Shown here: positions 10,367 through 49,971 of the stretch, piece by piece
Numbering within the stretch: the first letter of the stretch is position 1
Layout of the letters: each line of letters opens with the position of its first letter
Source of the DNA: Bispira polyomma
Lineage: Eukaryota
DNA length: 64,000 nucleotides
Assembly: GCA_965649765.1 (NCBI GenBank)
Contig: OZ287748.1
Span: 59,148,001 to 59,212,000, forward strand
Reading direction: 5' to 3'
The notes under the pieces: model-generated
Databases searched by the model: none
What the model was told of the DNA's origin: nothing
The model's input: only the letters and a program-made list of their open reading frames with translations
Program-made: the position numbers and the translations under genes

Positions 10367-10866
10367 CTATTTCTGTATCGAAAGTTTAGGAAAAACCTAA
10401 AATATCAAGTTATAAAAATGTGAAAATATTCTTTGTGTATAGGATAATCAGTGAAAAAAAAAGTAAATAAAATGTTCCTATACATTAAAACAATTGTTTT
10501 TCCTTGTCTCATCCATACATAAAACCCGAAGAATGTGGCCATTTGAACTTGCATGATATTCAGAGATCTAAAGTTAAATCCTGATTGTTTTGATTTTATT
10601 AAAGCACACAAACTTTAAGTTACATTTTAAACACATCACAGTTCGGAACTCCTTAATTGAAAAGATTGATGGGATTGTTAATCCCTGCATTCAGATACTA
10701 AATGAAATGTTTTGGAATTTATTACTCCTTCACGTATTGCAAAATGTTAGAATAGGACGGCTACTTTACCGTTGCCATACAAGCAGTGACAGTTTTACAG
10801 AACTACTAAGCATATTCCATAAGTTCACATCACGCCATAAGATCTAACCGATGTCCTACTTAGTGG

Positions 10867-11497
10867 TTATAGACACTGTTTTCCACCATTTCTACTGATG
10901 ATGTACGGGCTTCTGGATTTTGTCTGTTGATCTGAGTAATTCTCGCCACTTTCATACACATTGTTGTCAAGCATATTGGGCTCTTCCGCATTGTCTGCAG
11001 TAGCATTAAACTCAACATATTGATGCTCCCCATCCTTGCTGCCGTCTGTATTATAGACGTCATTGTCGATCAGATCACTTCTACCATTGACTACTGGTAA
11101 TGCGTCTGGTTGACCCTTGTATACCACATTTTCAACAAAACCATTATCTGCGCACTGTGATCCATCATTCTCCACTGCACTGGAGCCGATTGAATATGCT
11201 GGACAAGCGGGTCTTGTTGGAATTTTATAGATTCCTGCCTTATTACATTTGGCATATTCATCTCCAGATACACCTGGATTGGACATAGTAGAATCTTGTA
11301 CATCTTCATAGTTATTGGCTGAAGGTGTGTTTGATGGTACAGGGTTTTCTTTTGGAATTTTATATATTCCTGCCTTGTTAGATTTGGCATATTCATCTCC
11401 AGACACACCAGGATTGGACATAAAGGAATCTTGTACATCTTCATAGTTATTGGCTGAAGGTATGTTTGATGGTATTTTGTTTTCTTCTGCAAGTTTT
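10867..11497 (-). CDS. Gene A exon 6, cytoplasmic Tyr-motif tail
   Basis: Acceptor ttttccaaag|a, phase 2; NNYEDV x2, EYAKxNKAGIYKIP x2, ENVVY, DNDVY, DNNVY. Confidence 0.85.
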
Positions 11498-14400
11498 CTT
11501 TGGAAAATAAAAGTTACATAGACCTAAGTATAGTGAAAGATTGGTCGTTTTTGATAAATAGAAATATGAAACCTGTTTTTGTATTGAAGCTTATTATATT
11601 TATCTACTTGTGGTATTCAAAACCTGAATCAACCTTTTCTTGACTGCGCAAGTAAAGGCAACCAACACCAGTAAAGGTCATTATCTTCGATTAAAACGAA
11701 GGCTTGAGGATGACCATTTATCAATGTTCTTGTATTGATATTTTAGTTTAATACAATGTATATTAATTAAGGTAGAACCTCTTATTATCTGAATATATTG
11801 GGAGAGTAATATTTGTATTGCATAATAGGATGTTCATGAAATAGAAAACACATTTCTGAGCGTGGAAATGAGTTTAAAAGATTGAATATTTGGGTTTGAG
11901 AAGTATGGATGATTGAGTTTTACTATACAAGGTTTCACAATTTTATAGTTAGTCTAAAGCACACCTTCTGTGTCGCCACACTACAATGATGGCAAGGACA
12001 GCAATAATAATGATCACAGTCACTGTAACAACAACTGCTATGATAGTACCTGCAACAGGGTATATATAATTAGTGTGTACTATATACTGGATCTTACAAA
12101 ACTGACTTTAAATCCTATTTCTTTAAATGAAGTGCTGATAACTTTTTATACATGTTGAGTTTTGACTTGATCATAACAAGTCTGGTGGCTGGTCTTCTAT
12201 CTACGGGTATATCTCTTTTATACCAGTAATCTGGAATGGAGGAATTACATGGGATAACATTTTACTAGCTGGCTTTACACTTTGAAGACCACAAGACCGA
12301 AGGGAATTACGGGAGGGTACTATGAATAGTTCCACAAAAATTGAAGTGACAGAAGGAGGCAAGCTCAAACGGTGGGTATGTAATTCCTCTGTTTCAGATT
12401 GATGTTGGTCAGAATTACAATCAAACTTTACCTTACAAGTATGTTTTGTTTAATTATCAATTCTATCTCACATAAATCATGTCACCTTGGAACTACATGA
12501 GATTTTAGAGCACTGAGGCCTGAATGGTAAATAGGTAGAACAAAGTGTGGGGGAAACACACACTAAGAAACTAGCAAACACAAGTGAGCTAACAGTGTTT
12601 TAATCCATTAGTCCATTTATGTACAAGTATAGTAGTAGCCAATACTGAATATAGAAGTTATATACATATATTGGCTGTAAGTCTATACACGCACAACTTA
12701 AAATCAATCAGGTCCTGTTGTCGGCAAGACAGCTGAAGCAAAAGTCTGTTGTTCTAAACGTTTTTGCATTTACCCAACCAGCAGCAGCTAAAATAGTGCC
12801 AGGTCAATACTGCCCAGCAGGTCACCCTCATCAGTGCTATCAGCCTGACCCTCACTGATTAAAAAATAAACATCAGCCTCTGAGTCTGACCTATCACCAT
12901 ATAATGTGCCCTTTTTTGCCAGAGCTGGATCGACAGGACTGTCATCACAGTCTCTTTTCTGGGTCATCAGGGTCATACTCTCAGCCATTGAGGCCATATG
13001 ACCCTCTAATTTTGACAATGTGGTGGATTGCTCCCTTTTTGTCAGGGTGGATTGCTCACCGGCCTCTCCCCCAAAATTCCTCATCAACATGAAAAAACTC
13101 ATCAACATGGGTATGTTTATCAGTCATAATTACAAACAAGTTACAACGTAAACAGGAAGTCAATATATACCCAAATGACAGTTAAAAATATCTATAAATG
13201 TTATCCAGAGAATCTGAAAATGTAGTGTATCAAAAAATCAACACAAAAGATAAAACAAGTGTGAACACCATGAAAACAGGATGCAAATGAGGCCAGCTAG
13301 TGGATTGTTATCTCATGCAGTTCCAGAGTGACATGATTTATGTGAGTTACAATAATTATTTCTGTTCTATACACCACTTGCCGCCTATTTTGAAGTCGTG
13401 GGTTCGAATGTTGGACTCTACATGTATGTGGGAAAGTTGGCAGGTGACTTTGTAAACAGCGGTGGTTTACATTTCAAAAATGGGAACCAACTATGTCTTG
13501 ACAATCTACCGTGTTCTGCTTTCATCTACAAATAAGCTACCTGTTATAATGTAATATGCAGATGGTGCAAGTGATGTTAAACCCAAACCTTAAGTTATAC
13601 CTGAAACAGCATTTTCCTTTGCTGCAGATGTTTCCAGACTGGGGTTAGGTGGTAGGGATGTGGCTGGCGTAGATGAAATGCCATCATCATTTTTCTTTGC
13701 TGCAGATGTTTCCAGACTGGGGTCAGGTGGTAGAGATGTGGCTGGTGTAGATACAATGCCATTGCCTGTGCATGAAACACGAATGCTTCCCGTCTTCCCC
13801 TCGATAACTAGTAAAGCCAGAAAGCCATCATGAAGTGAGGAGATCATAGTTGTATTGGAGAACTAAAATACTGCAACAAATAAATCCGCTGTATTTTCCT
13901 ATTCTAACAGCATTAATGGTTGTCATGTTATTGTACACCTTATGTTTAGTAGGCAGATGGTTTGGCATGTGTTTGTCATAATATGCTCGATCTGGTCAAC
14001 TGCGCATGGCAGGAAGGTAGTTGGGATAAATATTCATTAATATGTGTATATCTGCCATGCCCATGGTCTTCCCTGAATTTAACCTGTGGAATTACATTTA
14101 TGTCAATGTTTCACCTTGTGGCGTTTTGGTATTTATTTGTTTAGGTATGTTAAAAATCTTTACTCTTTAACTACACATCCTTTTATCAGATTATAGGAAC
14201 TGTTGGGGTATAATTTAAGTAGGTTATGGTCCTTATGGTTCTTGGTGGTGTTGTCTCTTTGAAAATCAAGTACAGTTATTGAGGTTCGGAAGAGCTCACA
14301 CTAACGTAGATCCTAACTTATACATAGAATACTGTATATATACATATATATATATATACAGTAGAACTTCTATTACCCAAATATAATGGGAGAGCAAGAT

Positions 14401-17400
14401 ATTGTTTGGTTAATAGCAGGTTTATAAAATAGAAGAAACATTTCTATATATAAATATATCACAATAGGAACAAGAATTTTTGAGAGTGAAAATACGCTTA
14501 TAAAATCAAATATTTTGATAACAGAAATTTGGATAATAGAGGTTCTACTTGTACATACATATTTAAATATATTGTGAAACTCACCACCTACAGGTAACAC
14601 AAAAGAGGGAGTAGGTAAACGTTTTCCTTTGTAATATAAATTGAATACCATGCCATTTTTACTGGTGTTCACTGGAACTCTGTTCTTATTCTGATGTAAG
14701 AGACCAGACTCCACTTTGTAATCCTGATCCCCTTCCTGTGCGCTCACCAGGTGCAGGATTTCATCTGATAAAGAAGGGCTGTTTATAAACACCGTCCCTG
14801 GTCCAGCTAAATAGTAACTACCCTCCTTGACTAGTTGGATTTCACACAAGAAGGTGGTCCCGGTTGTACCAACTATTTGCCCAGACTCCTCAACATATGG
14901 ATTTTGTATGTAAACCATTCCATTGGTGCCTGCTGTTTGGTGAGAGCCAGCTGGGTTTACACTGACAAACTCTATAGGATAATCTCTCACACAGGCATAG
15001 GTGATATGAAAGATTCGAGGATTCATTATTGTGGTACCATCGCTCTGTTCCTTTGAACACTGTGTGTAGATTTCCCATGGTAGAGGAGGAGTTTCCTTAT
15101 TTTTATAAAAGGTATCAACATCAAATTCAATATTGTCGAATATCAAGTCATTTCTCTGGCGAATTGCACATACATTTTCCATATTAAGCCATTGTAGATC
15201 TGCAGATTGATTGGTAGATGGCATACAATATTGTTCATAGGGATGACTTTTTAACTTTATTTCCAGAATGCTTATTAGCTTTATGTCCGAAAGATATCTG
15301 CACAGTGGTCGGCGATCTGACAGGTAATTTCTGCACAACAACCGTGTTTGAAGACCTGTTGTGATTAAAATAGGTATTTTGTTATCTTGTACTATTATAA
15401 TTTATACATGTATGAAGACATTACTTCAATTTAAGTACAATATTGTATAAACAAATGACAGACACATATTCTGTGACCTGGCGGATAACATACTCACTTG
15501 ATAACGTAGAAGACCTGAGTTTGACTCCTAGTCTATGGTGATAAGGTACTAGGTACAGACAGATGCAGGACTTCCCAAAGTCTGTGTACTGCATATAATT
15601 AGTTTTCTATGCCGGTAGGCGGTAACAAAGTAACAAAGTTATAAATTCAACCAGACAAAGACACCTTTTAGTTACTGTCAAATGCACTCATAACTAGGCA
15701 GTCAAACAGAACACCTCTAGTAACTGAATATTTAGTCACTGATTAAAAAGAAAGCAACATGCATAATTACATAAAATAATACAAAATATATCAGAATATA
15801 AATTTAATAAACGATTGCACATTTTTGGGGGTTCCAAATCCTATGTTAAACTTTTGAGGTGACAGTCGTGACATCATATTGGTACCAGAGAATTAAAATC
15901 TACCCAAAAGAAGGTCTTGTGCTTACCTGTGCCATTAGTTGCATTACAGTAACTGGTGTCATCCAGGCACATATCTAATCCTTGAACAAACACAGAGTCT
16001 GCAGAAGAACATTGTTGTTCAAAGGAGATGTTGTTTGAACATGTGTTTATGATATTACACGACTTACAAGACTGGAAATTTCCATCATTCACTTTTGCAC
16101 ATGAATAAACACACTGACCTGTTGATGAAGAAAAAGGTGTACAAATATAGTGGAACCTCTACTTAATGAAAAAAATCCAGTTAATTTTATTATGTTAATT
16201 AATTGAAGTTTTGTATTTTCTCCAATAAAGGCTCTCTCTCTCTCTCTTATTACAGCCACTCCTTGTTATAAAGATTTTACATCACTAAATGCCTATATTT
16301 CTACAGGTAGACTCCACTAAAATATTAGGGAACATTGTTACATCTCTTCTTCAGGTAATGTTGAAAACGATATAACAAACATCATTGACCTATAGTTACG
16401 AATCAAGATATTCTGTAGATAGTTAACTGTATACATTACTATAGATATGTTACAACACCACATATCAAAATTGTTTTCTTGATTATTAGCTCTCTTTTGC
16501 GAAAATGCAAAGCCCCAGCGTTTATTACAGAAATGACAGTAGATACATAAATATATGTAACGCCAAAATGATGATACATGAGAACAAAAAGAAACAGCTT
16601 TGTAACATAATGTAACGATTCGTGTATTTTTATATTTTTATAGATTCTGTATGTAGACTCCTATTTCTTATCATATCTTTTATAGTCTATTGTATTGTAC
16701 ATGAAGTCACTTTCTGCTCAACTCACAGGGTTATGTCACACACTGTATGTATAAAAGGGCAAATATACATGTCCGATTTTGCTTCCGAATCTGTCATCCG
16801 AAAACATTTAGATATAATAAAATAGAGAAGTAGGATACACCTCCGAAGTAGAATACACCTCCCAATTTGGAGCCAAATTTTCGGAATCGGTCAAAGGTTT
16901 TTTTGCGGATGATTGGCAGGAATATGAAGTAATTTCCTTGCTTTTGAGATTTTTTTTAAAGCATAAATACTAGAAAAATCAGCCAGTTTTTCGGAGGTAG
17001 TGTATCTGCAAATTCAGACGACGGAAACTGACGTCAGATGACGGATTAGGAAGGAAAATCAGACAGATATATTTGCCCCTTAAATCTATTAAGCTGCTGC
17101 ATAAAGATATTATTTTACAGAAAAAAATCAATAGTTTTCAAAATTATATTAGGTAAATAAATATACTGCCAGTAAAAGGCATCAAGTACCAGTGCATGTA
17201 TTGTAACCGAATCCCTGAAAAACTGCCCACCAAGTAAACTGTCATCAGCTCTACTTTGTCTGGGTAAACTACCAACCAGGTGAACTGGCTACCACTCAAA
17301 TTTACTAAGGACAACCATAACATTAACGACCAAAGTAAAAGTAGTATACCACCTCTTTTAATCTGTGAAGTTATGTCATAAATTTAAAAAAAAATTTTGA

Positions 17401-19405: not shown

Positions 19406-21902
19406 TACAAGTGAGGCAGTAGTCTACATGTCCAGAGTTAATTCAGTCCATGATTTTGGAGCATCAGTTGTTAAAATGTATGTTTGACTGATTAGTCATT
19501 ATGTGCTTCTCAAACTTTACACCATTAGTAAATTTAATCAAGACATGTATGTTCTTGTTATTGGTAATAAGTAAAGTCCCACTTTTTTAAAGTTCTTTTT
19601 TTTTTGGTAAAAATTAGAAAAGGCTTTTGTTTTACCATATTTTAGGCATATATTAATAGACAGGACTGTGGTCTCCCATGGCATAGTAATTTGGGAGAAT
19701 TGGTCTGGTGATCGCAAGATCCCCAGTTTGACTATCGCTGAAGCCATCTAGGTTCATTGGTCTGATAACCTCTTTGGGTAAGATGTTAACATGTCATTAC
19801 CTATTGATGATAACTGAGGCACTATCTCTTTCAGGAAACCATTGCCTTGGAGGATGGTATAGCAATAGGGCGCTACATCAATGCTTCAATAACAAGCAAA
19901 ATGTATTTTGGGAGCCTATAACAGGGCTAGGGTCAAATCCTAAAAGGATACAAAGTTATGAACTAAGGTGGCAGTTGACCTGTATGTATGATGCTGAAGC
20001 TGGTTGGCTGTACTTGCGTAGTTAAGAATAGGTTTAAGTAGCACTTTGAATATCAGATAAAGGAAGACAAATGCATGGAGTCTAAATCTGGATACTATAG
20101 AATACAATCAAATGAACCAGCTGTAGTTTTTACATCACTGTACAGTATCACTAGAACTAGGACTAAGCTCAGTCCAGGGCTGGTATTCACAGACATCATT
20201 TTTCCTAATTATTTGTCTTAGCAAAATTTAATGGCTGAAAATATTGTTTCAACTGACTTGAATGGCTGATATTAAGAAGATTCTTGAAATAGCACTTGTG
20301 AATACTTGCCCAGATCATAAATCATCTCCACCACTACCGTAAGTACAATAATACCAGCATCTCTCTCATGGTGTTTATCTTTTAGTAAAATTACTGCAGT
20401 TACAAGACTGATTCCGTGGTTGAACCTATCATAAAAATTGGTTCTGGAATTAAAAAGGTGCACTCAATGTTTTATAATATAATGTTAGCATACAATACAA
20501 TGTATAGGTTTTTACTAGTGTTTATATTCTTTGGCGCCTGTACTTTTCAAACAGAATTTGAGCTCAAATTTAGACTCCAGTCAAATAAACACTATGTGCA
20601 ATTCCTGTGTGGTGAAATAACCTATACTTGTAGTCATTCATATATAAGAAGGCTTGAAATGGAAATTTGAGCTTGAATCTGAGTTGATTTTGAATTTGAA
20701 CATGCGTTGTTATCCATTTAATGGCTAGTATTTGGACTATACTTGGATAGTGTCCCTTGTTGATGGATTTTCATCTATTCAGGCACACTCCACATGAATT
20801 AATGCATTTACAACTACTTGGTTAACTAAGAATTTATTAAAACAAAGCACTAATTCACAAGTTATAAAAATGTGGGCTAGTAGAATCTGTGAACCCTGAA
20901 ATACAATGTTTTGTACAATACAGACCAGAATATAAAATGTGTTGTATTACCCAATGCCCTTGAACATGTACACAAAAACATTATATTAATGTCTACCCTT
21001 TTGTCCCAAATCTTCAATATTTTTATGTTAATTTTGTGAAACAAAACTGATAATAAAAGTAAAACAACTCTTATGATGGGTATATTAACAGTGTATGCAT
21101 ACTGAACTCACATTGTATTGCTTATCTTCTTGGGTAATATAATTTCAAAATAATATAAACATTAACAGAAGCAAAACTTATGTTTCCAGTTGCACCAGCT
21201 ACTAAATGCATGCAACTCTGTCTAAACCAGGATTACATGATAAATGCAAAACATTACTTTTATCAGTGAAAAACTCCTGACCATAATATGTTACTTAGTT
21301 ATTTTAGTGTCTATTTCAGAAATACACCATTTTGAATCAGTGTAAAGTTAGATGTATTGGGTTTTAACGTTATCTTTGTAAAGAAAGTTAGAGCCTAGAG
21401 GTGGACAATATATAAAGCATTAGTAGGTGCTTAACTTTTGTAAAATTAGAGTTAATATATGTTCTAATACATTTTTAAAAGATGAAAACGTTGCAGTCCT
21501 TAGTGTATTTGATGCATAAGCCTAAGTGTTTTTTTATTTCTACAACTTAAAATAGTAGGACCCCCCACTGACCAATGTAAAATAGATTCTTATTCTTCTG
21601 TAGAAATATGTCCCTTATACAACTGGTATGCATGTTAAATACAGCACAGTAAACCCTTCATTAATAAACACCTCAGAATAGTGAACACCTATTTATAATG
21701 AACAAATAAAGGTCCTATTTTGCCACTAGTGAATTGTACAGTACTAAACAGTGAACACTTCCTCACATAGTGAAAATATTGGCTGACTTGGGTGAGTGGT
21801 CACTATTATTATTCAACACAAAATTTTAGGCCAACACTGGCCATGACATTACAACCAGTTGCAAATATTTTTAAGCCAAAACATTTTTTGTAACATTTAT
21901 GA

Positions 21903-22677
21903 TCAGTTATTGTAAACACTATTTTCAACCTTTTCTATGTATGCTTCATCATCCTCTGGTTTCAGTGATGCTAATTCCTTCTGTCTATCTGAAACATTCT
22001 CACCACCTTCATAAATATCATTATCCATCATCATTTCTATGACCTGTTCTTTCTTTTCTATGCCTACTGTATCGGGTTCCAGCTGAATGTATTCATGTTC
22101 CTCTGCTGTAACATTTCTGCTTAGATCCAGGTACTCATTGCCATTGTAGAGTACATTATCTATCATGCCACTTGTATGGTCACCTTTTGGTAAAACCTTT
22201 CCATTATTGTTGTCATACACAGCCTTCTCCAGGTCAATCTCTATGGCCTGTTCTTTCTGGTCTAAATCTGTTATACCAGGTTCCAACTGGATGTATTCAT
22301 ATTCTTCTGTTGTATAATTTCTGCTTAGATCCACATCATCTACCATGTCATTTGTATGGCCACATACTGGTAAAGCCCCAACACTGTTGTTGTCATACAC
22401 ACCTTTCTTAGTCATCCCATTGGTTGGTTCCTCCAGTAATTCATTGTAGATATCATTCTCCACCAGACCATCCATTTGGTTTAGTATAATCACAGATGCA
22501 ATAGTGTTATTGCCTATGGGTGTTTTATAATGTCCTGCCTTGTTTGGTTTGGCATAGTCTTTGCTGGACAGAGGTATAGGAGAATGTCCTTTCTGGTTCA
22601 TTTCAAGGTTGTCCTGGTTGTAAACTGGGTTTGCTAAGGACACAGACTTCTCATTTTCATTCAAATTCTTGCGGTGC
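21903..22677 (-). CDS. Gene B exon 6, cytoplasmic Tyr-motif tail
   Basis: NPVY, DYAKPNKAGHYKTP, ENDIY, EYIQL x2, DNVLY, DNDIY, terminal VENSVYNN*. Confidence 0.85.
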
Positions 22678-25600
22678 CTACAATGTTTTAAATTTGTGTT
22701 GATATAGTTAATTCCTTGAAATATTCAAAAGAAAAAAAAAACCTGAAGAATTTTCATGCACATTTGTGTCATGTTATTGTCCTACATATTAAATCAGAAA
22801 TGTAGAGACCATTATCTGCAGTCAAATGATATATAGTGTATGAAGAATATCGGTAGCATATCACAAGAAATGAACATAAAATCAGTTTAATTTGGACACT
22901 TTATCACATTTCTGATATGTTAGACATTTGGACATCTACACAAAAGTGTCTGCCTCATTATCTATTCAAATACAATTTCACTGGTTTGTCTAAAGATTCA
23001 TTAGAACAACATTTTTTTTTTCATTTCAAGCATTACTAAGGATTGATTTTGAATGAACTGTTGTGACTATTAAAAGGTATTTGATTTAACTCTACATTTT
23101 TGTATTCCGTGGTGCCAAAAACAAGCCTTGGAGACACCCCTTCTTTTGTTTGAAATATAAGTGCATCTCATATGCTATTGCTTTACCTCTTGTACAGACA
23201 CACCCCAGTGATGATGGCAATCACCACAAGAATGGCCACTACTGTTGTCACCACAGCTGTTGCCACAACTACAAACACAAACAATTATCCACAATATTAT
23301 TATACAGGTATGATTAAGGGGGTACGGCTGATAGTTTTGGTACTGATGGAAAGGTTGGGCTCCAAAAAACTATTAATCTGATGATATTTTTTAAAAGTCT
23401 GATGGCTTGATATTTACAAATATAAGCGTCATTGTTGACGAAAATCACCATCGCCGACTTCTTGTAGTATGATGTATCAAAGCCAACTTCATATTTACAT
23501 GTTCAGCACACTCAACATAATATTTTATACATTTACGACAGTCAATCTTTTACCCCTCAAACTCGTGCCTGTGGGAAGGCAACGGCTCGTATATATCCAT
23601 ATTTCTCAATGACTTCTGACAAAGTACATGTAACGAAAAACCAAAAATATGTATTGAAATGGCCAGTTAAGTTTACTTGAAAAAAAAAACACCTTTGAGG
23701 TTAATTGTTGTACAGCTTAGAAAAGACTGTTATAGTTATTTCAAGTGAATTATGTTTAGTATTATTTAACATCAATTATGCCAACAAATGTGACGGATCA
23801 CTCCAGTTATATTTAACTTAAATATCTCATTCTAACTTGTGAAGACAATAATGATTATATTGTTTAATTTTATCTATAACAATTGTACAATTCTACAGGT
23901 TTTACATATGATAATGTGCTAACATAAAATTATAATTTTCTCTGCTTTGACAAGCAAAACGATAGAAAATGTATTTTACTTATCTCTCAGTGACCCAACA
24001 TTTTAATATTTAAATGGTCAGTTAATTTAACTGAAAAATGTAGAAAACTTAAAAAAGATAAAACACCTGATGAAGATGCTTTAGTATTCTCAGTTTGACC
24101 CTGTTGCTGATCAAATTGCCTATCCTCAGTTACTGAGTTGTTTATGGTGCTGCTCATAGGTGGCATATCAGTTGATGGACTTGTTGACGACAATGACGTT
24201 TTTTGCTGGCTTTCCTCAGTTACCAAGTCATTCGCAGTGCTGCTTATAGGTGGCATATCGGTAGCTGGACTTGTTAAGGGCAATTGATCTCTATCACCAT
24301 AGGAAATATTTATATATCCTGTATAACCTTCCAGTACTGATAAAAACAAAGATTAAAATTCATTAGAATATGCATGTAAATGAGAAAATCAGATAATTTA
24401 CCGTATGCAGAATAAATAAAGCTTAATTTTATATTTCCATTTGACAAGAGTTTATGAGCATTCATAGTACTATCATATTACTATATATAATATCGAAGAG
24501 ACACATATTTACTAATACAAAACATGGATATCTTGATGTCAATGTATTGTAATTTTCTTTTCATTAAGTTATATATTTTTTTCTATTAAAAATTCTGTTC
24601 TAAAAACAACACAATGCATGGAAATATGAATAGACTAGTATAATAAATCATGTATACAATTTTATGGATTGTATTTCTTTGTTTAAAAATACCACTTGGA
24701 AAGTTGACAAGCTCTAAAACTGTATAAAGCTTTCTCATTGTAATATTGACACCATAATATTGAAATATTGAGTAGCTAGTGAATCACTCACCACCAATTG
24801 GCAGTAGAAAGGATCCTGTAAATTCGTTTTGCCCAATGTAGTAAAGGTTGAACATTTTTGCACTAAATGCTGTTGTAACCATAATTCGTTTTCTGTAGTT
24901 CACAAGACGTGGCTCTATGGTGTAACTCTCTGTCTCAGGGAATGTTGCATTTATGACAAGAATATCATCTGAATCAGACTCCCGACCACTAAAAGCCGTT
25001 CCTGGACCACCAAAATAATATCTACCTCCCTGCTGAAGATCTATCTGGCCCAGGTGCTTTATATGTACACTGTATTTTCGATTGATATCCTCATTTCTTT
25101 TCCTTCTTTGATGCAATGGATTTGACTTTTCTACATTATACTGCACATACACCATTCCTTGAGACTCAGACTCTGCAGTGGTAGTGGCATCATTTATACT
25201 GTAGAATTGTATTTCGTAATTTTTCACACAGGCAAAAGTAATATGAAAAATTCTGGGGTAAGAGCCTTTAACTGGTCCTTTTTCACAAATGTCTTGACCT
25301 TGACTATTATAGGCATCACTGGTATCAACATCAGTGGTATCGTTACTATCTTCGTTAGAACCATCTCTACTATCACCTGTATCTGCACTACCAGTTGCTT
25401 CACCTGTCTCTTCAGAACTGTCTGTTTTCTCTTTTGTGTCTGACTTACTAGTTTTCACTTGGTATTCCCCATCAACAGGAACTTCAGGACTTTCAGAATA
25501 ATCTTCACCACCCACTTCCTCAATTTCTGTAGAATGCATTTTCGGACACTTATTGTAAATATCCCATGGTGCAACATAATCTTCCTGCTCATTAAAAGTG

Positions 25601-28600
25601 TTGATAGTAAAATCAACGTCTTCAAACATTAAGTCACTTCTTTGTCGTACAGAACAAACGTCATCTGTATTAAGCCATTGTGTTATGTTAGTGGTACAGT
25701 AATTGACATGATGTTTTAGCTGCACTTCCAGAATACTTATCAGCTTGACGTCCGAGTGGTATCTACACAGTGGCCTGTCATCTGATAGATATGATTCAGA
25801 CAGCAACCGTGTTGAAATAGCTGCAAAGGTGAGACAAAGAAGAAATAATATAATACCCTAAATATAGTATCACGGACACCTGCGTTGAAGAGGTAAGGAG
25901 AAAATGGGAGAAATTCCTAACACCCCTATATAGTTTGTGTTAAAGTAAATAATTTTACAGAGGATAATCTCTTATAAGAAAACATTTTGCTCAAACAAAG
26001 AAAGGTTGAGAACAGACAACAAAGACAAAAAAAAAAGTTTTTATTTTATATCTAATACACCTTTATATTCAGACAACCAAAAATGAAAAAAATAGAGGCT
26101 TTGAGGCCAATGTGTAAGCTAAATAAAACCAATACTAACAGTTTTCACTAGTATCACTGCACGCTGCCTTTTCATCTGTGCTACAATTCCCTTCAAAGAA
26201 AATGCTATCACCAGGACAGTCCATCTCTGAGAATTGTGGACTACAATTGACATATTTGTCACAGGACTTACAAGACAGGTAGAGTCCATCATCTAACTTG
26301 TTGCAGGAGAATATACAGTGTCCTGAGAAACCAAATAACAGATTGTAAACTAACTGGTATATCTATATTATCTGTTAATATACCCAAACAATGTAAGTAA
26401 GTATAAAACCTTTATGACACAACATCAATATGCCTTAATGTTTGTATATCAGGTGCATTAAATTATTTTATACGTGCATCAGTAAATCAGTGCAACAAAA
26501 TGCCAATTAAAACATTAATTAGACTATGGTTCTCATTTTAATTTATCTTTAATTATTTATATTAATAGCATAGTTTGTGTAATAATTTGTAGTTGGTACA
26601 TTTGTCATGTTCTCTATCTTTAAAAGTTGATTTGTTTTCAGAAAGAAATTTTCATTTAATAGCACAATATGTACAATAATAATTGAGCATCTTGAAAGTA
26701 ACAATATTTTCCTTATTCAGAAGTCTGCCACTCTTCTGCCATTGTATATTACAGTGTATATTTATGTAAGCAGGGGACAGTGCTCACATGATGTCTTATC
26801 CAGGGCTTAAACTTAAATCTAAGACTTGTGTCTTTTCTTTCGGTAAAAAAAAGCCACAAATTTGGTCTTAGTCATAGTGATATTTCCAAAAGCAGCTGAG
26901 CCTAAGTTTTAGCTTAGCCAGAGGTTTAACTTAAAGACAGGTTGGTAGTGGGCTTAACTTTACTGTAAAAATAAGAATAACAATTTCAGTTGTGCAGTGT
27001 ATAAAAAAAGTTAAACATAAAAATATAATTTTATGATGTAAAATATCAAACAATCAAATTAAAACTATCTTAAATCAAACCACTGGATTACAACTGTCTT
27101 AAAACTTAAAATATTATAAAATGTACTGCTTTGTGTTTGAAATTAGGCATTTTGTATGTTCAATTGTTAAATTCTTAAAGTTTGTAATAAACCAAAACTT
27201 AAAAAAATTATTTTGTCTGTTTCAAATTTATTGGGATTTTGTAACTTGTGATTTTGTTCAACAGTGCTATTCCAATCATATTTTGGAAAAAGTTAGTAAG
27301 AACAGATAGTACCAGATTTATGCTGACCATTTCTTTATACAAAGGGTTTATCTTCGTAAGCCACAATTTCAACTATGATAATTTTTTTTTAATGTTTTCA
27401 TTCACATAAACATATATTGAGGACATTTTACATAAGACATGGACAATTACATAATACAATTTCACATCATTAGAATGCACAAAAACAAAAATTGCAGTGT
27501 ACTTCATATTGCATGTTTCTTTATCATTCTTTTGACCACTTCAGTTACTCGCATTAACAAGAATCACAGAGACAAAATGTTCATATTTTTTAGTTCAAAT
27601 TCACCATTTAATAATTAGTGGAGTATAGATCATAACAATAATAAATATCACCCAGGCATGCTTGTCTTATTACACATCTTACGTTAAAGTATTTAGTGAA
27701 ATAGCAATTATTAAAAACACTTGATGAATGTCATTGTATAGTATTCTTATCCAATTGATGAAATTGTTTCCAAAAAATTGTAAGATTCTAAACATTTTAA
27801 TAGGGGGAAAAAACATTCTACACTGTCAAAAGCTTTCTTAAAGTCTACTGAGACCAGATAACTCGGTAAATATTTCTGATCAACATGTATCAAAATGTCT
27901 TTAATAACTCTAACATTTTGTCCCATATATCTGTCTTTATTGTATCCTACTTGGTCATCATTGATTAATTTTGATAGTACCTGTTGAAGTCTATTGGATA
28001 AAGCTTTAGTCCTTATTCTGTATTTAGTGTTCATCAAGCTCACTGGCTTCCAGTTGCGAAAAAGGCGCAGATCTTTACTTTCATTTGGGATCATATTACT
28101 TATACTTCTCCTTTGATCGGGCGACAAGGTACCATTTTAAAAGTATAGTTAAAGCTTTCAAAAAGTATGTCTGGCCAAAAGAATTAGTAAAAGTTGGCCG
28201 GAAAACCGTCACCTGCCGGTATTTTATCATTTTTTAATTGCATTAAAGCTTTAGAAATCTCTCCCAATTTGAGATTTTCATCACATATTTCTTTTTCTAA
28301 ATTACTTAATTTTGAACCTGTTAGACCACTCAAAGGTTTGGTGTTCGAATACTGAACATCGGTGATTTTTGAGGAATATAGATCTTTGTAAAACATTTGC
28401 TGTCCTGCAAGGATATCGCTTGGATCTGTTAGCCTATTGACCATTATTTCTGATTAGTTTCTTGATATATTTAGTGTTGCAATTAATTTTTTTCTAAATT
28501 AATAAAATACTTCGTATTTTGTTCTCCTTGTTCTGCCCACTCTGCCTTAGTATAATTAATTCTGTTTTGGCATTTTCCAAATCTTCCCAATGTTTTTTTT

Positions 28601-31600: not shown

Positions 31601-32314
31601 ATGAAAATTGAAATTAAATTAAGAATGCTTGTTCAAATTCTTACTTTATTAAATGGTAGAAAAAACGCTACCACTACATTATTTTCTAATGCTACATTAT
31701 GAGAAAATAATGTAGTGACACTTCAATGGCAATGCATACAGTTTGGGTTAATCAAATATCTGACCACAACTTGGTCTAACATATGAATTACCATAGTGTG
31801 TCTAATCCCTACCCACACTTTACATTCAAGATATTCATCACCTAATCACATGTAGTAGTATCATTAGTATTATAAAGGCCTAAAGGCCCTCAAACAACAT
31901 TAAGCTTCCATAATGTAAGTGCCACGAGGTGTTTAGCTATTATAAAACCCAACCCAACTAAGAGAAAATTTTGGAATAAAAATTGAAATATTTACTTTAT
32001 TAAAAGGTTATTTAAAAGGTAGAGAAACGCTACCACTACATTATTTTTCAATGCTACATTATAAGAAAATAATGTTGTGAAAGTTGGCAATGCATACCGC
32101 TTTGTATTAACATGTTTACACACGACTGAAACCTATTGCTAAAAATAAGTCCCTGTTAGACCTTACACAGAAGAATGAGACTACAATGATGAGTCAATTT
32201 GACATATAGTATTTATGTAAATTTAACACTACCTGTTGATAGAGGGATTGTCAGGTAAATGAACAAAACAGCCACAGTGTAGAAATAATAAATAACTCTC
32301 ATCAAGAAAGTCAT
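21903..32314 (-). CDS. Gene B: type I membrane receptor paralog (806 aa)
   Basis: Exons 32314-32233, 26322-26140, 25820-24792, 24336-24067, 23268-23187, 22677-21903. Total 2421 nt = 807 codons, phases 1,1,1,1,2. Confidence 0.85.
23187..23268 (-). CDS. Gene B exon 5, TM helix VVATAVVTTVVAILVVIAIITGVCLY-KR
   Basis: 82 nt, phase 1-2. Confidence 0.85.
24067..24336 (-). CDS. Gene B exon 4, Ser/Thr stalk
   Basis: 270 nt, phase 1-1; TSPxTDMPPxSST repeated twice. Confidence 0.8.
24792..25820 (-). CDS. Gene B exon 3, conserved ectodomain with acidic insertion
   Basis: 1029 nt, phase 1-1; homologous to exon 3 of A. Confidence 0.85.
26140..26322 (-). CDS. Gene B exon 2, ChtBD2-like domain
   Basis: HCIFSCNKLDDGLYLSCKSCDKYVNC...MDCPGDSIFFEGNC...AC; 183 nt, phase 1-1; not in the supplied ORF track. 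Confidence 0.8.
27600..29110 (-). mobile_element. Decayed L1/Tx1-clade LINE (endonuclease + RT fragments) in intron 1 of gene B
   Basis: SDHS and GPGYWKFN (~28830-28900), EQGEQNTKYFINLEK, GDGFPANFY, NWKPVSLMN, DFKKAFDSVE, in broken frames. Confidence 0.8.
29703..30346. mobile_element. Non-autonomous DNA transposon (PIF/Harbinger-like termini), AAACG-rich interior
   Basis: gtggtcacactg..tacgtt.cg versus cgcgaacgtactcagtgtgaccac. Confidence 0.65.
32233..32314 (-). CDS. Gene B exon 1, signal peptide MTFLMRVIYYFYTVAVLFIYLTIPLST
   Basis: ATG, hydrophobic core, donor G|GTAGTG (phase 1); separated from exon 2 by a 5.9 kb TE-filled intron. Confidence 0.65.
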
Positions 32315-36600: not shown

Positions 36601-37210
36601 CTGTGCCAGAGACAAAGACGTCACTACAGACACAGAGGTAAAGTACTCTATATTGTTAGGATGGACCGATATCTTCACTCCATTGGAATCTGACACCACA
36701 CGAGGCAGTGGAGTCGAAATATTTGACTTGTCAGCTATCCACTGTTGGTAGTAATAGTCATTTGGTCTGAAGTAAGGTTTCAGGATTTGCATACAAGGTC
36801 CAGCACACAGTGAGTTGATCCATTTGATATCTGGCACATTTGATATGCTACACACAATGGTAGATTATGGTAAAACGATTATTTGAGACGAACAGTTATA
36901 TGGAGTTTTCTCCAAAAAATATTTCAGAACAGCTCTACAGTATTAAAGCTTACGTTGCAGAGTATTCTTCAGTAAATGTCTGTGTAAATTCAGGGTATTA
37001 TTCAAAGAAAACAATTACCAAACAACAGGACAAGGCCATTAATGACACAAATAAGCACGGTGTGTGCAATATCATAAATGTTTCATATGGATATGTCAGA
37101 TCTTAAACTTGTCAAAATGATGTATTACTGATTATATACACTGTTTTCTACCATTTCAATGTTACTCCATCTTGTTGTATCCATGTTAATCTGACTATTA
37201 TTTATAGTCT

Positions 37211-37736
37211 CTACGATATACTCTTAGAATCTGGCAACTGTAGCTTTTGATTTGCATTAGGGCCGGGATGAAGATCAGATTTATTCTTGAGAACTAAGTA
37301 CACATTGTCTGACTTGATACCATCGGTACCCTCATCTGTTACAGTCCCTTGTTCTTTTGTCAAGGTAGATGCTTCATGCACATCATTGTCCATTAAATCA
37401 GCTGGATTTTCTTCCATATTCCAACCATCACTACTGTAAATATCATTTACAATCAATCCATCTTCATCTATTATCATGGTATTCTGAACTGTTCCATTGT
37501 TTGAGGGTGGTGTGCTATAGACACCAGCTTTGTTTGGTTTGGCATATTCAGTACTACCAGATGAAAATGCACTTGATAGTGCTGCACTTTTTGGTAATGA
37601 TGCATTTAATTTGTGATGTGATTCAACATCTGCTACAATTACACTGGCTGAGGAAATAGAGATGTTACAACTAATATCTTCACAGTTGTATACTGAGTTG
37701 GCAATAGATTTATCAGTGTCAATGTGTTGTTTCTTC
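37211..37736 (-). CDS. Gene C cytoplasmic tail exon
   Basis: NSVY, EYAKPNKAGVYSTP, VNDIY; conserved end EMVENSVYNQ* lies in another frame (stop at 37125). Confidence 0.75.
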
Positions 37737-38141: not shown

Positions 38142-38223
38142 CTTCTCAGAACAACAATTGATACAATTAGAATGGCTGTTGCAATCATGATTATTACACC
38201 AACTGTAGCCCCAATGATCACAC
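38142..38223 (-). CDS. Gene C TM exon GVIIGATVGVIIMIATAILIVSIVVL-RR
   Basis: 82 nt, phase 1-2; GxxxGxxxG. Confidence 0.8.
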
Positions 38224-38723: not shown

Positions 38724-38984
38724 CATTTCCTGCTTGCCGACTGGTTTCAGCTTGTCCTCTGTCCTGATTTAGATTATGTCTCAACTCTGGCTCAGTAACT
38801 AGCACTGTGTCTGTGCTGTATGTTGTGTGTACATCAACTCTAGGATCAGTAGTGATCATGTGGCCATCTGTGGGTTCATTATTAGATGTTGTTTCCAAGG
38901 ATGCAGATGTACTGTACACTTCAGTGGATGTTTGTTGGTTCTTATGTAAACCACATGTTACTGTCATTCTACCATTACCAAGAG
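38724..38984 (-). CDS. Gene C Ser/Thr stalk exon
   Basis: 261 nt, phase 1-1. Confidence 0.75.
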
Positions 38985-39413: not shown

Positions 39414-40129
39414 CTGTGAAAGGGACTATTAAAGCAGTCTTTGAAGCTGTATCTTTGAGCTGCAGTTTAATTTCTCTGTTCAGATTAGTGGCAGTAATAT
39501 TTCCTTGTGGAGGTGGGCTGCTTCCATTATAAATTCTTTCAAAGCTTGTATCTGAAATTTGAAATTCACCATTTCTCAGCAGTGCTTGGGGTTTTCCATA
39601 TGTGACACTGGTATGTCCTTCTATAAACAATTCACAATAATACTGACCGCTGTCATTCTGATCAGTATATGTGCTAAACCAGTTGTTGAAAGTTTCCCGA
39701 GATGAACTATAAAAGTATAATTTATAAATATCCTTGCTATTTGTAAGAATTATATAGTTTCCTGTCAAAGATGTATTCTGGTACAAAGATATGGCATGTT
39801 CAACACACTCATACTGTACATGATGCAGTGTGTCAGCCATTGTAGTTGTTTCTGCACAGTAATTGGTATTTTCCCACTGTAAACTGTTTACTTTTATGTC
39901 ATTCAGCTGTCCAGGAATAAACTGAATAACATCTACGATGTCAGTTCTTTTTCTAAATTTGCAAACATGATGATATTTAAAAATGTCTGAGAGTAATAAA
40001 TGTCCATTACACTGGTAAAGAAATGGCTCTGATTTTTCTACTTGCACTTCATAAACTATGTGGAGCTGGAGTTCTGTAGGTGTAGGGCACAGCAATGCCA
40101 GGTGTTACATAACACACCTCCCATGTTAT
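39414..40129 (-). CDS. Gene C central ectodomain exon (frameshift near 5' end; in-frame cryptic acceptor at 40073)
   Basis: 229-aa open frame, distantly similar to A/B/D (CKFRKRTDI, LHHVQYEC, LIVPFTG). Confidence 0.7.
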
Positions 40130-40838: not shown

Positions 40839-41009
40839 CCGTTTTATCTATTCCACATGAGATACTATTATGGAGACAGTTCTTTGCTGCATCATCCCAC
40901 ACTGTCTTGGTGCAGGTTCCGTTATATATTATATTATGTGCACAGGTAACATAGGTGTGACAACCAGTACAAGATTGGTAGTAACCATCTGGTAAACCTG
41001 AACAGTCCC
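40839..41009 (-). CDS. Gene C ChtBD2 exon (most canonical copy)
   Basis: DCSGLPDGYYQSCTGCHTYVTCAHNIIYNGTCTKTVWDDAAKNCLHNSISC. Confidence 0.85.
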
Positions 41010-43011
41010 CTGAAAAATAGGTATATATCTGGAATAAGTTAACAAATTCTTCTTTAGGAAAACTAGCCATCCTGTCTACCAGTGGTGCTGTTGCAAGAGA
41101 CAACCACTACAGTCAGCTACACTTTGAAATTGTAGCAATAAATTTTTTAATAGTTTGAAAATTGATAAACAACAATTGACTTTGTTCAGTCAGTTATATT
41201 ACAGCAATGTTATAAGTAAAAAAAAAGTTGGTAGTAGTTATTTTATGCCGCTCCTGGTAAATGGAAGATGCATCTTACTAATATGTGCAGTCAGACGAGC
41301 CAAAGTGCTTTCAAAAGAAACCCAAAGGCATACCATTTCAGGCAGGCTTATCCTCATTAAAGGTTCTCTTAATAACCCTTTACATTGTCCTTAGTAACCC
41401 CATTATGTACCTGGACTATATGCTATTGGTTAACTCCATGGATGGTGTGCGATGCCTGGTCATCAATTTGGACGCTATAGAAATCGTTCATTTAAAATAG
41501 CAGTACTAATAGTAGTAAAATCACACTTGGAAGAATCATAGTTTGAAATAGCCAAGTTTTACCTGTATTCACACAGTCTTTAGGTCTTTAGTCTCTGTTG
41601 TACAGAATCCCCAGTGAGAATTGTCAGTGTAGCACCAACCTTTACCTTTGTTGAAAACAGTGGGCATGTACATCATATGGGTTGTATTAATCTTATAACA
41701 AATATTGTATTGAAGACAACTGAAGACAGATTTAGATGTATTTGGCTCAACAAATATTTCAGCTTGCATATGTGATAAATTAGGGCATCATACTCCTTGC
41801 AGGAATGAATTAAGAAACTAACAAAAAATAACACACAAAAAATTATGCGTTTGTATACATCAGCATGACACTAAAATTAATCCTTTGAATTTATTGCAAA
41901 GGACATTATTCAGTTATCCTATTCAACTAAATTTGGTTGTTACTACAAATTTGTTAGTAACGAGGCTATAATAAAACTCTCCACTGTTCCAATTAATTTA
42001 TGAAAATTGGCAGACTTTACCTGTGTCTCTGTTACAATCAAATGCTTTACTTCTGTCACAAAAACTACCAGCAGTGGCATTTCCAGCCTGCACAGGAATG
42101 AGACATTCACCCCATTTCTTTCCCTGAATAGGAAAATATTACACATAGTTGTCATGAAGTATGCAACATATGAGAATAACTTTAAATGTGAATAATACTT
42201 TATTTAATCAGATACTCCATTCAGTGGTCAGTCTTTTACTGCAGAAAGTTGTTGTGAGAAGTTTTTACACTCTAAAATACAATTGGCAGCACTGAAAGCA
42301 CTAAGACGGCAATGCATTTATCATTTTATTGTTGATTTTATATTGAGTAAATAATGTTGTGTTATATTTTGGAAGCAACCATATATAATTTTGCGAGCAG
42401 TCATTTATTTTGCGCCAAAATTACACCTAAGAAGTTATACACCTAGAGCTCAATGATATTAAGTTGCATATGAAGTTGCATGTCCTGCTATGTGTATTCA
42501 AGGTGTACCATTGTTACAGTTTATGACTGCAAGGTTGTCGACAAACTGAATTTTTGCCCCTCTTGTCTGTATACTTTAATCTTTTAGTTGGTATGGTCAG
42601 TAGAAATAGATGATTACCATGTTTCATTAATCCTTTATATTTTGAAATACAACGGTGTTGCTTGCTACATAAAAATGACCAGAGCAACCCATGAATAACA
42701 CCAATTTTCTGCCATTTGCAGATCCACATTTAAACTGACCATTTTAAATCTATCAGTTTTGGATTATCAAAAGGATGTTCTTTTGTCTTGGCATGCAATA
42801 TAGATGATACTTAGGTGTTAACAAACTTACTTAGAATATAATTATAAGAATTTTCTATGTCTCAGCCAATCAGGTTCTTTGAAACATATTTTTAGCCAAT
42901 CAAATGGAGACAAAAATATAAGAAAAACAATCATTGTGAATACCCGCCCCAAACATTGCTTTAAACTAACTGCTTTGTTAATTGAGGTCAAATAAACATT
43001 TTCCCACATAC

Positions 43012-43169
43012 CCCTTGATAAGTCACAGTATGTGCACACCAGGGACGGATCCACGGACGGTTCCATCCTGCATTGGTACACTGGTGGTAGGTGTGTGCTC
43101 TATATGTAAAAGGAAACACACATGTTCCATTTGTCTCCGAACGCACACTCTCTATGATTGGGCAGCTTG
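43012..43169 (-). CDS. Gene C fibronectin type II domain exon
   Basis: GTCVFPFTYRAHTYHQCT...RPWCAHT matches the FN2 signature C.FPF.Y....Y..CT....WC; phase 1-0 as in gene D. Confidence 0.8.
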
Positions 43170-44084
43170 CTAGGTATTTAAATACAATACAAAAAATATA
43201 CCTTATTACCATTAGTATTGATAACATGTAACCAAAGTATTATGACACTATTTACATAAAGATATTCTACAATAATGTAGAGTTTCATTCATGTGCAAAA
43301 TATACTGCAACTTCGATAGGGAATTATAGAAGATAGGTTCACTGTGGATAGCAAAAATTTACCCAAGCATCACTTATATAACCCAAAAAACTTTTATAAT
43401 AGACTGAGCTATTTTTAGTGCCAGTAATAATGTTCTGAGAAGAGATTTCAAATTATGCCTGGTTGTAGAATATTAGTATAGCAAGGGTATGTATTGTGTG
43501 AGATAAGACATCACAATAATGACAGGTCTACATAAAGAAGTAGACAATCATAGACACATAATGAACAATTACAAACGTCGAATAATTTTAAGTATCCTCA
43601 CTCTGTAATTGTCTGACAATATCAATATAATTAACAGAAAAACAGAAAATGTAAGAATTGTTTAGTAATAGATATATATATTACCGGTACATATATCCAT
43701 TCTGTACTGTTGTTGCCTATTCTGGTCATTTGGAGTATTTGTAATATCTGTGTAACAATTCACATTTTTATGCCAAATCAATGAGATTACGTCATTACTT
43801 TTATCCAAAATATTTTTATCCCAAAATATTTATCACAAATAATCTCTATCAGCCAGTGGCAAGACACTCGCATCTTACCTCTGCCGCCATACGTTCAAAT
43901 ATATATATACAAGGAAGTGTTAAAGTATTTATATTTAAATCCATATTTGTATGAACCCAAAAATAGTTTACATACCTGTACAAGTAAGTCGTGCATGTAA
44001 TGCACACAAAAACATTGCAAGGAAGAAACCTTTCAATACATTTGTCATTATTTCCACCATAGTTTGGTTGAAATCTGTAAGTGT

Positions 44085-49050: not shown

Positions 49051-49388
49051 TTACCTTCGCCAGAAAGGTTATGTTTTAACCCCTATCAGTTTGTTTGTTT
49101 GCAATTATGGCCAAACATTGTGGAAGGCATGAGGCAAGGAAATTCTTGATGAAGATCTAGGAAAAGCTTAATGAGGAATCTGTATACTTATTGTGGAATT
49201 TAATGAGTAAAATTACTAGGAAATTGCTGTATTCATCAAATAAATTGTTCATCTACTTTTTGAAATGCTAATAAATGGCCGACTTTGACAGGTGTATTTG
49301 TGTAGTTAAGTGAAGCAAAAAAACAAAACAAAAAACGTTTGATTTGATACCCCATGGCGGAGGATTGCTCTCTACTGGGAGCTCTTGT
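49051..49388 (+). mobile_element. Helentron-associated (HINE/DINE-like) element in the 3' UTR of gene D
   Basis: 5' ttaccttcgcca..aggttatgtttt..gtttgtttgttt and 3' tggcggagg..gctctctactgggagc (subTIR + terminal hairpin). Confidence 0.6.
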
Positions 49389-49400
49389 CAGGACTTGTAT

Positions 49401-49971
49401 TTAATTATTGTAGATATCATTATCTACCATGTCCACAACGCTCTCCCTTGTGACTGCACTATAGGCACCTGACATACCATTGCTCTCATAGAGATCATTC
49501 TCCTGCAATTCTACCTCCTCAGCAGCTTTATCTGTAACACAAACATCAGCATCACATCGTTCTGTCTTTGCTATGGTGTTGGCATCAGTTGGCTTCTCAG
49601 GTTCAAAACACAATGGAGATGCACTTTCTGCATTGTTAGGTCTACCTTCTTCAGTTGTTGGGCCAGTTTGGTAGACTTTATTATCAACCATACCATTGAT
49701 GTCTCCTTGGTCAGCAATAGCACTGTCATTATCAATATCATTGTCTAGCAAATCTTGTTCAATATTAAGAACATTAAAATGATTGCCTCTTGGTTCTCTT
49801 GATTTCGGGATAGTGCAGATTCCTGTTTTGTTAGGCACAGCATATTCAACAGTGTCTTCTGTTGCTATATATGCAGTTTCTGAATTGGTAGCTTGACTCA
49901 TATCTTCGGAGTTGTATACTGGGTTTGTATGCGATACAGTAGCTGGTTTGTCATTTACAGGTTTGTTCCTT
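49401..49971 (-). CDS. Gene D cytoplasmic tail exon
   Basis: NPVY, EYAVPNKTG, DNKVY, ENDLY, terminal MVDNDIYNN*. Confidence 0.85.

Follow-up and report, generated by a model that had tools for sequence, protein, structure and literature searches.

Do the tyrosine-bearing tails of four neighbouring paralogous genes of Bispira polyomma form an immune-type activation cassette, as an initial annotation of their DNA had proposed, or do they dock partners of another kind? The genes, here called A to D, lie head to tail on the minus strand of a window of 64,000 nucleotides (GenBank assembly GCA_965649765.1, contig OZ287748.1, forward-strand positions 59,148,001 to 59,212,000), whose first letter is position 1 for all coordinates given here. 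With a probability of about 0.62, we read their products as non-catalytic single-pass receptors whose acidic tail would act as a multi-adaptor tyrosine scaffold for PTB and SH2 domains, with an NPVY site serving traffic. By their sequence, A to D appear to form an undescribed family: outside the cell, these surface proteins have a chitin-binding-type domain, and inside it tyrosine docking motifs. A prior description was not found in a search of mainly open-access literature.

The 64-kb window is AT-rich DNA of animal type (GC fraction of 0.27-0.42 per 2 kb) with one assembly gap of 278 N at about 45.1-45.4 kb. Exon boundaries were set from AG/GT positions; all 20 modelled introns are GT-AG, including the one following the signal exon of C, and the joined open frames comprise 627 (A), 775 (B), 652 (C) and 754 (D) codons. 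From the N-terminus, the proteins are composed of a CBM14-like domain, preceded by an FN2 domain in C and D only, an unclassified Cys domain, a Ser/Thr stalk, a transmembrane segment and an acidic tail, the tail being encoded by a single exon with the stalk and transmembrane exons directly before it. In a Pfam scan of the exons of A to D, CBM_14 and fn2 were the only meaningful matches: no catalytic domain was found in the tails, and no EMI, EGF or NIM domain in the exons scanned. A CBM14-like exon is present in all four paralogs; the curated cut-off of PF01607 (22.1 bits) is passed by C alone (27.8 bits), with B, D and A below it at 21.1, 19.3 and 15.9 bits. The CBM14 variant bears a CxxC, a resemblance that would suit an invertebrate and probably a lophotrochozoan. 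The Cys domain occupies about 255 residues in a single exon, the copies of B, C and D being 24-45% identical to that of A, and had no match in Pfam, the PDB (best E 1.6) or Atlas, no search at its own length having been made. AlphaFold2, given four sequences of the unclassified ectodomain, returned an unusable model with a mean predicted local distance difference test score (pLDDT) of 35. This domain may represent an undescribed family. The copy in B has RRKR, a furin-type consensus, at ~25110-25095 (-), together with an acidic Ser/Thr insert of about 80 residues without counterpart in the other paralogs.

Each model has one hydrophobic stretch (peak hydropathy, KD19, of 2.96-3.51) flanked by 1-2 Lys/Arg before and 4-5 after it in all four, 14-22 Cys and 5-7 sequons lie on its N-terminal side, and candidate signal-peptide exons could be located for A, B and C, while no such exon was found for D within the window. 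Thus, A to D are type I membrane proteins and their tails are cytoplasmic, as the initial annotation had presupposed. A single transmembrane segment, a cytoplasmic tail without a catalytic domain and conserved tyrosine motifs under selection, as described below, are attributes of the functional class of non-catalytic tyrosine-phosphorylated receptors and are seen in A to D; ligand-induced phosphorylation by Src-family kinases, another attribute of the class, is predicted for them.

The most distinctive element of the tails had been given as (E/D)YA(K/V)xNK(A/T)Gx(Y/C)xxP, and it does occur in all four, twice in A, where a tandem duplication of 45 codons (among 42 codons compared, 5 differ synonymously and 5 by replacement) places the second-tyrosine sites of the two copies 45 residues apart. 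We correct it to Y-[AT]-x-x-[ND]-K-x-G-x-Y-x-x-P, termed M2, with its tyrosines 9 apart. A six-frame scan of the window with the M2 core pattern gave five matches, all inside the tails of A to D. Over nine units, counting those of four outside tails (P0001-P0004, see below), the first Tyr, Ala/Thr at +1, Asn/Asp at +4, Lys at +5, Gly at +7 and Pro at +12 are found in all nine and Tyr at +9 in eight. The description of M2 as a double YxxP motif holds for the second tyrosine, which is reliably YxxP; the first has Pro at +3 in only 5 of 9 units, and both tyrosines are YxxP in only four (B, C, P0001 and P0004). M2 is one firm YxxP preceded by a site of a different kind. YxxP is a ligand of Crk/Abl/Nck-type SH2 domains, and Csk anchors often have N-K at +4/+5; partly by this analogy, the first site most resembles a Csk anchor. 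In Cbp/PAG1 and paxillin, which are mimicked by EPIYA-A/B segments that bind the Csk SH2 domain, a phosphotyrosine followed by a small residue is reported to recruit Csk for feedback on Src (PMC3492796, PMC3593179). Unlike such anchors, M2 mostly has Pro at +3 and adds a second YxxP at the fixed distance of 9. The only match of the M2 profile in the PDB, to CAKPNKPGVY, a C-terminal stretch of a serine protease (E 0.03), was set aside as chance, context and topology being unrelated.

The second class of sites comprises NxxY units. As the initial annotation had it, NPVY in B and D and NSVY in C lie near the membrane, 13-16 residues into the tail exon; A is without either, and juxtamembrane NPVYN is kept in 6 of the 7 tails with a visible start. 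Five of six aligned tails (B, C, D, P0001 and P0004) also share a possible regulatory phosphosite, a Ser 6 residues before the tyrosine of this site. The more distal (M/L/F)(V/I)(D/E)NxxY units were described as several per tail, which is true of A to D together (6 in frame) and fails for C, which has none in frame. Across 27 NxxY units, a count that takes in the out-of-frame ends of A and C, position -6 is hydrophobic in 26, -5 is Val/Ile/Leu/Met in 23, -4 is Asp/Glu in 25 and -1 is Val/Ile/Leu in 26, and the most frequent form, hydrophobic-hydrophobic-[DE]-N-x-[VIL]-Y, appears to be a PTB-type site. That NPxY/NxxY sites bind PTB domains and that pYxxP is an SH2 ligand were also part of the initial annotation and fit the definitions given in the published sources (PMC4985636, PMC8007030, PMC10470053). 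PTB domains bind NPXpY/NXXpY, with a subfamily accepting unphosphorylated tyrosine (PMC4985636). A Y-[IVL]-x-[LFVI] site that it did not mention is present in 6 of 8 tails, a number matched by 10 of 4000 shuffles. Together, the eight tails contain 75 tyrosines, of which 56 fall in four motif classes: N-x-hydrophobic-Y (25), M2 (17), Y-hydrophobic-x-hydrophobic (8) and the juxtamembrane site (6). Neither YxN, YxxM and YxxQ nor the immunoreceptor tyrosine-based switch and inhibitory motifs (ITSM and ITIM) are enriched in the tails, the ITIM pattern (S/I/V/L)xYxx(L/I/V) being absent from the four window tails and present in one of eight overall, against 2.51 expected. In B, an internal duplication at 22080-22400 (-), in which VYDNNN...EYIQLEP occurs twice, has added units.

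In 5000 composition shuffles, the NxxY pattern of the initial annotation was expected 0.01 times and observed 6 times, M2 0.00 and 5 times, and [DE]NxxY 0.80 and 10 times, with none of the shuffles reaching any of these counts; NPxY alone is weaker (2 against 0.26 expected, reached by 134 of 5000 shuffles). The four large ectodomain exons have no such enrichment, the NxxY pattern occurring in them 0 times. This test is post hoc, the patterns having been derived from the sequences tested, and the non-circular evidence is the comparison of codons. Between paralogs, M2 differs by 0.17, 0.21 and 0.55 at codon positions 1, 2 and 3 (84 codon pairs) with 65% amino acid identity, whereas its 12-codon flanks differ by 0.64-0.81 at all codon positions with 7-10% identity; the terminal block has 10, 6 and 32 differences at the three positions. 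Since change in the motifs is biased to third positions and the flanks have diverged at all positions, the tail motifs are under purifying selection, and the expectation that they would be more conserved than their surroundings is borne out.

A profile of the tails searched against 1,835,955,588 proteins matched three (P0001-P0003) and a second search added P0004, all from the ENA; P0001-P0003 are single-member clusters on long contigs, P0004 likewise has one member, and all four look like tail exons called as open reading frames. At 22-36% local identity these tails keep the order of motifs, and three of the four have NP(V/I)YN, M2 and several NxxY units, with M(V/L)ENDVY at, or close to, their C-terminus. 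P0003 starts a little upstream of M2, and its terminal tyrosine is lost. Because a motif-built profile found them, these tails bear out the order and spacing of the motifs more than their enrichment. No full-length relative was found among about 8,000 candidates each for the ectodomain and tail alignments, a negative that is weak evidence and, for the ectodomain, does not extend to the 1.84-billion set. In Atlas, neither the ectodomain of A nor the tail of D had a usable match, and a PDB sequence search with the tails found none. The family looks narrowly distributed.

Taking topology, motif order and selection as observed, we infer ligand, kinase and partners as follows. A polymeric ligand, such as chitin, another glycan or matrix, would cluster the receptors via their CBM14-like and FN2 domains, and a Src- or Abl-family kinase would then phosphorylate tail tyrosines that follow acidic residues and have a hydrophobic neighbour at -1. 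Shc/Dok/IRS-type PTB adaptors could dock, several at once, on the repeated hydrophobic-hydrophobic-[DE]-N-x-[VIL]-Y units, one of which lies two residues from the C-terminus. M2 would serve as a two-site SH2 cassette, its second tyrosine (pYxxP) binding a Crk/Abl/Nck/RasGAP-type SH2 domain and its first (pY-[AT]-x-x-[ND]-K) docking Csk for negative feedback on Src. Uptake or recycling would depend on a CED-6/Dab/SNX17-type PTB or FERM protein bound to the juxtamembrane NPVY, and a phosphatase or AP-2 might make a further contact at the Y-hydrophobic-x-hydrophobic site. Tandem duplication adds units to the tails, and point changes remove them. Ordinary signalling adaptors are probably recruited rather than a classical immune activation motif being used. 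If so, an invertebrate family would couple a chitin-binding-type ectodomain to Src-dependent adaptors, PTB sites and a new double-tyrosine cassette replacing ITAM (immunoreceptor tyrosine-based activation motif) and ITIM, and would offer a testable route to chitin or matrix sensing in such animals; the logic of a kinase-less receptor, tyrosine docking motifs and the birth and death of paralogs is familiar.

Several points weigh against this scheme: 19 of the 75 tail tyrosines lie outside all four classes; Grb2-type YxN and p85-type YxxM sites are without enrichment; short motifs are promiscuous; the conservation in the outside tails is partly circular; the Csk assignment draws in part on a +4/+5 similarity and on vertebrate specificity; and chitin is uncertain as the ligand, given that only the CBM14 of C passes the Pfam cut-off. 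A further point, that NPxY motifs mostly serve trafficking according to PMC8007030, also speaks for a different function, in which unphosphorylated NPxY/NxxY sites bind Dab/CED-6/SNX17/talin/kindlin-type PTB and FERM proteins and the products are endocytic scavengers or chitin matrix anchors, much like LDL-receptor-family and integrin tails. The retention of juxtamembrane NPVYN speaks for this function, a mucin stalk with a carbohydrate-binding domain would suit a scavenger, CED-6 may bind without phosphorylation (PMC8092387), and the talin PTB domain may do so at an RET site (PMC11369174). We nonetheless regard a mainly trafficking or adhesive tail as unlikely. It leaves M2 unexplained, which lacks an NxxY form and has four invariant positions and a fixed tyrosine spacing in 9/9 units. 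The tail tyrosines also lie in what looks like the context of a kinase substrate, acidic at -4 and -2 and hydrophobic at -1.

An ITAM of the Draper kind, read by a Syk/Shark tandem-SH2 kinase that activates the cell, appears very improbable as the function of these tails. The universal cassette M2 has Pro, never Leu/Ile, after its second tyrosine, and the strict pattern YxxL/I-x6-8-YxxL/I is found in 0 of 8 tails, so the cassette proposed in the initial annotation is not an ITAM. A relaxed pair that the annotation did not mention, YxxL-x10-YxxL, is present away from M2 in three of eight tails (B, P0002 and P0004) against 0.19 expected and fits the YxxI/L-x6-12-YxxI/L definition used for Draper (bioRxiv 10.1101/198986), and Draper and Megf10 likewise combine NPxY with an ITAM (PMC8092387). 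However, the pair is absent from the other five tails, A, C and D among them; being common to P0002 and P0004, it counts as two independent events, which 45 of 4000 shuffles reach; and the pairs are not aligned, the second tyrosine of B matching the first of P0002. In B, the first copy of the internal duplication lacks the tyrosine that forms the pair in the second. A side route through Syk/Shark is possible for some members. RasGAP prefers Pro at +3, and its high-affinity tandem-SH2 partners (p190RhoGAP and Dok) are described with YxxP pairs spaced at least 18 apart, while EphB sites 6 apart mainly bind a single SH2 domain, about 100-fold more weakly (PMC10470053). The M2 spacing of 9 is nearer to that of EphB and falls short of the high-affinity tandem partners. 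Because the invariant Lys and Gly and the spacing exceed the needs of one SH2 pocket, M2 might be read as one unit, in the way that Syk reads an ITAM: in lineage-specific chitin-sensing receptors, Y-[AT]-K-x-N-K-x-G-x-Y-K-x-P would be a new fixed-geometry two-phosphotyrosine code with a dedicated reader, the PTB array would set the gain and truncated alleles would be dampened variants, a speculation to which we give little credence.

By analogy, the tails of A to D would work most like those of CD200R or Draper while belonging to neither family. The ectodomain of CD200R consists of Ig domains and its tail has one NxxY, whereas 1-4 distal units and M2 are present here, and no homology was detected. 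The likeness lies in a non-catalytic single-pass protein with an NxxY PTB site, upstream acidic residues and extra tyrosines, CD200R being described as signalling via NxxY, Dok2 and RasGAP with a dispensable, non-conserved Pro (PMC8007030). Draper, CED-1 and MEGF10 share a tyrosine-rich, non-catalytic tail with NPxY, reported to be phosphorylated by Src-family kinases (PMC8092387, bioRxiv 10.1101/198986). They differ from A to D in their EMI/EGF/NIM ectodomains, in that an ITAM-spaced pair is seen here in a minority of tails, and in M2 as the universal cassette here. RET Y1062 is a non-Pro NxxY with hydrophobic residues at -6/-5 and -1, matching the repeated unit, but RET is a kinase with one such site, which is repeated here in a kinase-less tail. 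As a PTB site, Y1062 is reported to bind Shc and all Doks (PMC2150770) and, when unphosphorylated, perhaps talin (PMC11369174). Outside the membrane, the CBM14-like and FN2 modules and the Ser/Thr stalk recall peritrophin-A (CBM14) mucin-like proteins and FN2 endocytic receptors, from which the central domain of about 255 residues sets A to D apart. Peritrophins are generally secreted and without signalling tails.

The tails had been said to end in VENSVYNx* or VDNDIYNN*, which is true in frame of B and D; the unit is out of frame both in A (10889-10860) and in C (37154-37125). As written, A ends in ...GGKQCL* at 10867 and C in ...DSKSIS* at 37211. Measured from an in-frame anchor, the conserved stop lies 115 nt away in A (from MLDNNVY; 1 mod 3), 191 in C, 129 in B and 108 in D, and the alignment of A with B has a 14-nt gap at the frameshift spot. 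Because most differences between the out-of-frame ends of A and C are still at third positions (1, 0 and 4 at codon positions 1, 2 and 3), the frameshifts, which lie just before the final motif, are recent. We rejected a cryptic intron as a means of restoring the terminal motif: of the frame-restoring GT-AG pairs of at least 40 nt (127 in A and 68 in C), none has a pyrimidine tract of at least 0.6, and the 13 with a passable donor would remove conserved motifs. Programmed frameshifting was likewise rejected, as no slippery heptamer was seen by eye and the two shifts are opposite in direction.

A second lesion in C is suggested by its ectodomain, where homology (hhalign E 1.8e-4) continues 5' of the in-frame acceptor at 40073 and the acceptor at 40129 places a Cys at the offset seen in A and D, but in another frame. 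If the shifts were assembly indels, all four genes would be intact in the animal and each would carry the final motif. Selection on the out-of-frame ends until very recently, the fact that a single base gained or lost in a short run could account for each shift and the assembly gap at about 45.1-45.4 kb agree with this, but short runs are common and hence weak evidence. Moreover, the lesions are clustered, B and D (4,597 of the 8,593 modelled coding bases) having none; C has two as well as a candidate dead exon with an 8-nt duplication; and the lesion in A falls within the final 60 bases, the place at which a gene best tolerates a real truncation. Assembly error in both genes therefore seems possible, at less than even odds, to us. 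We consider it likely that C is a pseudogene or null allele, and A has recently lost its terminal unit either by real truncation or by an assembly indel.

The single tyrosine losses noted in D (ICTIP and DNDID) and C (DNDVH) are real, the codons TGC, GAT and CAT each being one base from a Tyr codon, and they had been taken as paralog-specific tuning. The D tail is nearest to P0004 (E 4e-30) and P0001 (E 2e-22), with its neighbours A to C at only E 2e-9 to 3e-5. Since these two nearest relatives keep three tyrosines lost in D (GIYKVP versus GICTIP, NDIY versus NDID, and VYLNL/VYINL versus LCFEP), the losses in D are probably derived. That in C, a gene probably decaying, may be decay. We lean slightly towards relaxed selection for both genes, given the several lesions in C, the additional changes in D at neighbouring motif positions and the loss of some unit tyrosines in P0003 and P0002 as well. 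Against this, D is open over its full frame and keeps NPVY and three NxxY units, so that loss by selection is conceivable; because adjacent motif positions also differ, tuning and relaxation are inseparable in D.

Table 1. Features of paralogs A to D in the window.
Feature	Position	Strand	Remark
A tail exon	10860..11497	-	in-frame stop of the open reading frame at 10869-10867; EMVENSVYNH* (10892-10860) in another frame
A M2 copy 1, EYAKSNKAGIYKIP	11353..11394	-	
A M2 copy 2, EYAKCNKAGIYKIP	11218..11259	-	45-codon tandem duplication
A three in-frame NxxY units, FVENVVY, LIDNDVY, MLDNNVY	10954..11139	-	
A YVEF site	11019-11008	-	among the in-frame NxxY units
A frameshift region	10905..10935	-	14 nt shorter than B in alignment
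A transmembrane exon	11965..12049	-	
A Ser/Thr/Pro stalk exon	13601..13807	-	
A unclassified Cys-containing ectodomain, ~255 aa	14585..15355	-	no Pfam, PDB or Atlas match
A CBM14-like exon	15927..16118	-	Pfam E 0.014, under cut-off
A candidate signal-peptide exon	20118..20199	-	phase 1, weak donor
B tail exon, intact	21903..22677	-	terminal KVENSVYNN*
B NPVY	22631-22620	-	
B M2	22559-22518	-	
B NxxY units	22466, 22166, 22031	-	
B relaxed ITAM-like YLDL-x10-YIQL	22080..22133	-	
B transmembrane exon	23187..23268	-	
B stalk exon	24067..24336	-	
B unclassified ectodomain	24792..25820	-	acidic insert and RRKR site
B CBM14-like exon	26149..26322	-	E 3.4e-4, just under cut-off
B candidate signal-peptide exon	32233..32314	-	phase 1 donor
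C tail exon	37125..37736	-	in-frame stop 37213-37211; EMVENSVYNQ* out of frame
C NSVY	37699-37688	-	
C M2	37549-37508	-	
C further tail sites LIVNDIY, LMDNDVH, YLVL	within 37125..37736	-	
C transmembrane exon	38142..38223	-	
C stalk exon	38724..38984	-	
C divergent unclassified ectodomain	39414..40129	-	acceptor 40129 gives a probable frameshift near 40095; acceptor 40073 in frame
C CBM14 exon	40839..41009	-	E 2.9e-6, over Pfam cut-off
C candidate decayed Cys/Trp exon	41563..41691	-	stops and 8-nt tandem duplication at 41591; exon status inferred
C FN2 domain, two exons (43169-43012, 42123-42021)	42021..43169	-	Pfam E 8.2e-10
C candidate signal-peptide exon	43976..44048	-	
D tail exon, intact	49401..49968	-	terminal MVDNDIYNN*
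D NPVY	49925-49914	-	
D M2	49847-49806	-	second Tyr replaced by Cys
D further tail units LLDNDID, MVDNKVY, LQENDLY	within 49401..49968	-	
D transmembrane exon	50256..50340	-	
D Ser/Thr stalk exon	51243..51635	-	
D unclassified ectodomain	51826..52608	-	
D CBM14-like exon	60281..60466	-	E 1.3e-3, under cut-off; beyond 7.7-kb retroelement-bearing intron
D FN2-like domain, two exons (62052-61883, 61394-61313)	61313..62052	-	Pfam E 1.5e-5

Other open frames and retroelements are interspersed with these genes. Apparent coding exons at 2-448 and ~3710-3961 (+) belong to an unrelated Ser/Thr/Cys-rich gene converging on A, without a Pfam match, and a 126-codon open frame at 36484-36864 (-), about 260 nt downstream of the conserved stop of C, lacks a meaningful Pfam match and occurs only once in the window. 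A LINE-like RVT_1 fragment lies at 27747-28136 (-), between the candidate signal exon and the CBM14 exon of B, and a LINE-like segment with a 459-residue open frame containing zf-RVT at 62620-64000 (-), upstream of the first modelled exon of D. The 7.7-kb intron of D contains, at 53570-58930 (-), a degenerate retroelement with an RVT_1 fragment (E 3e-8), an integrase SAM-like open reading frame (E 1e-5) and another of 315 residues without a Pfam match, a content that would fit a DIRS-type element; within the retroelement, a tandem duplication of 1.1 kb with 92% identity lies at ~55475-57735.

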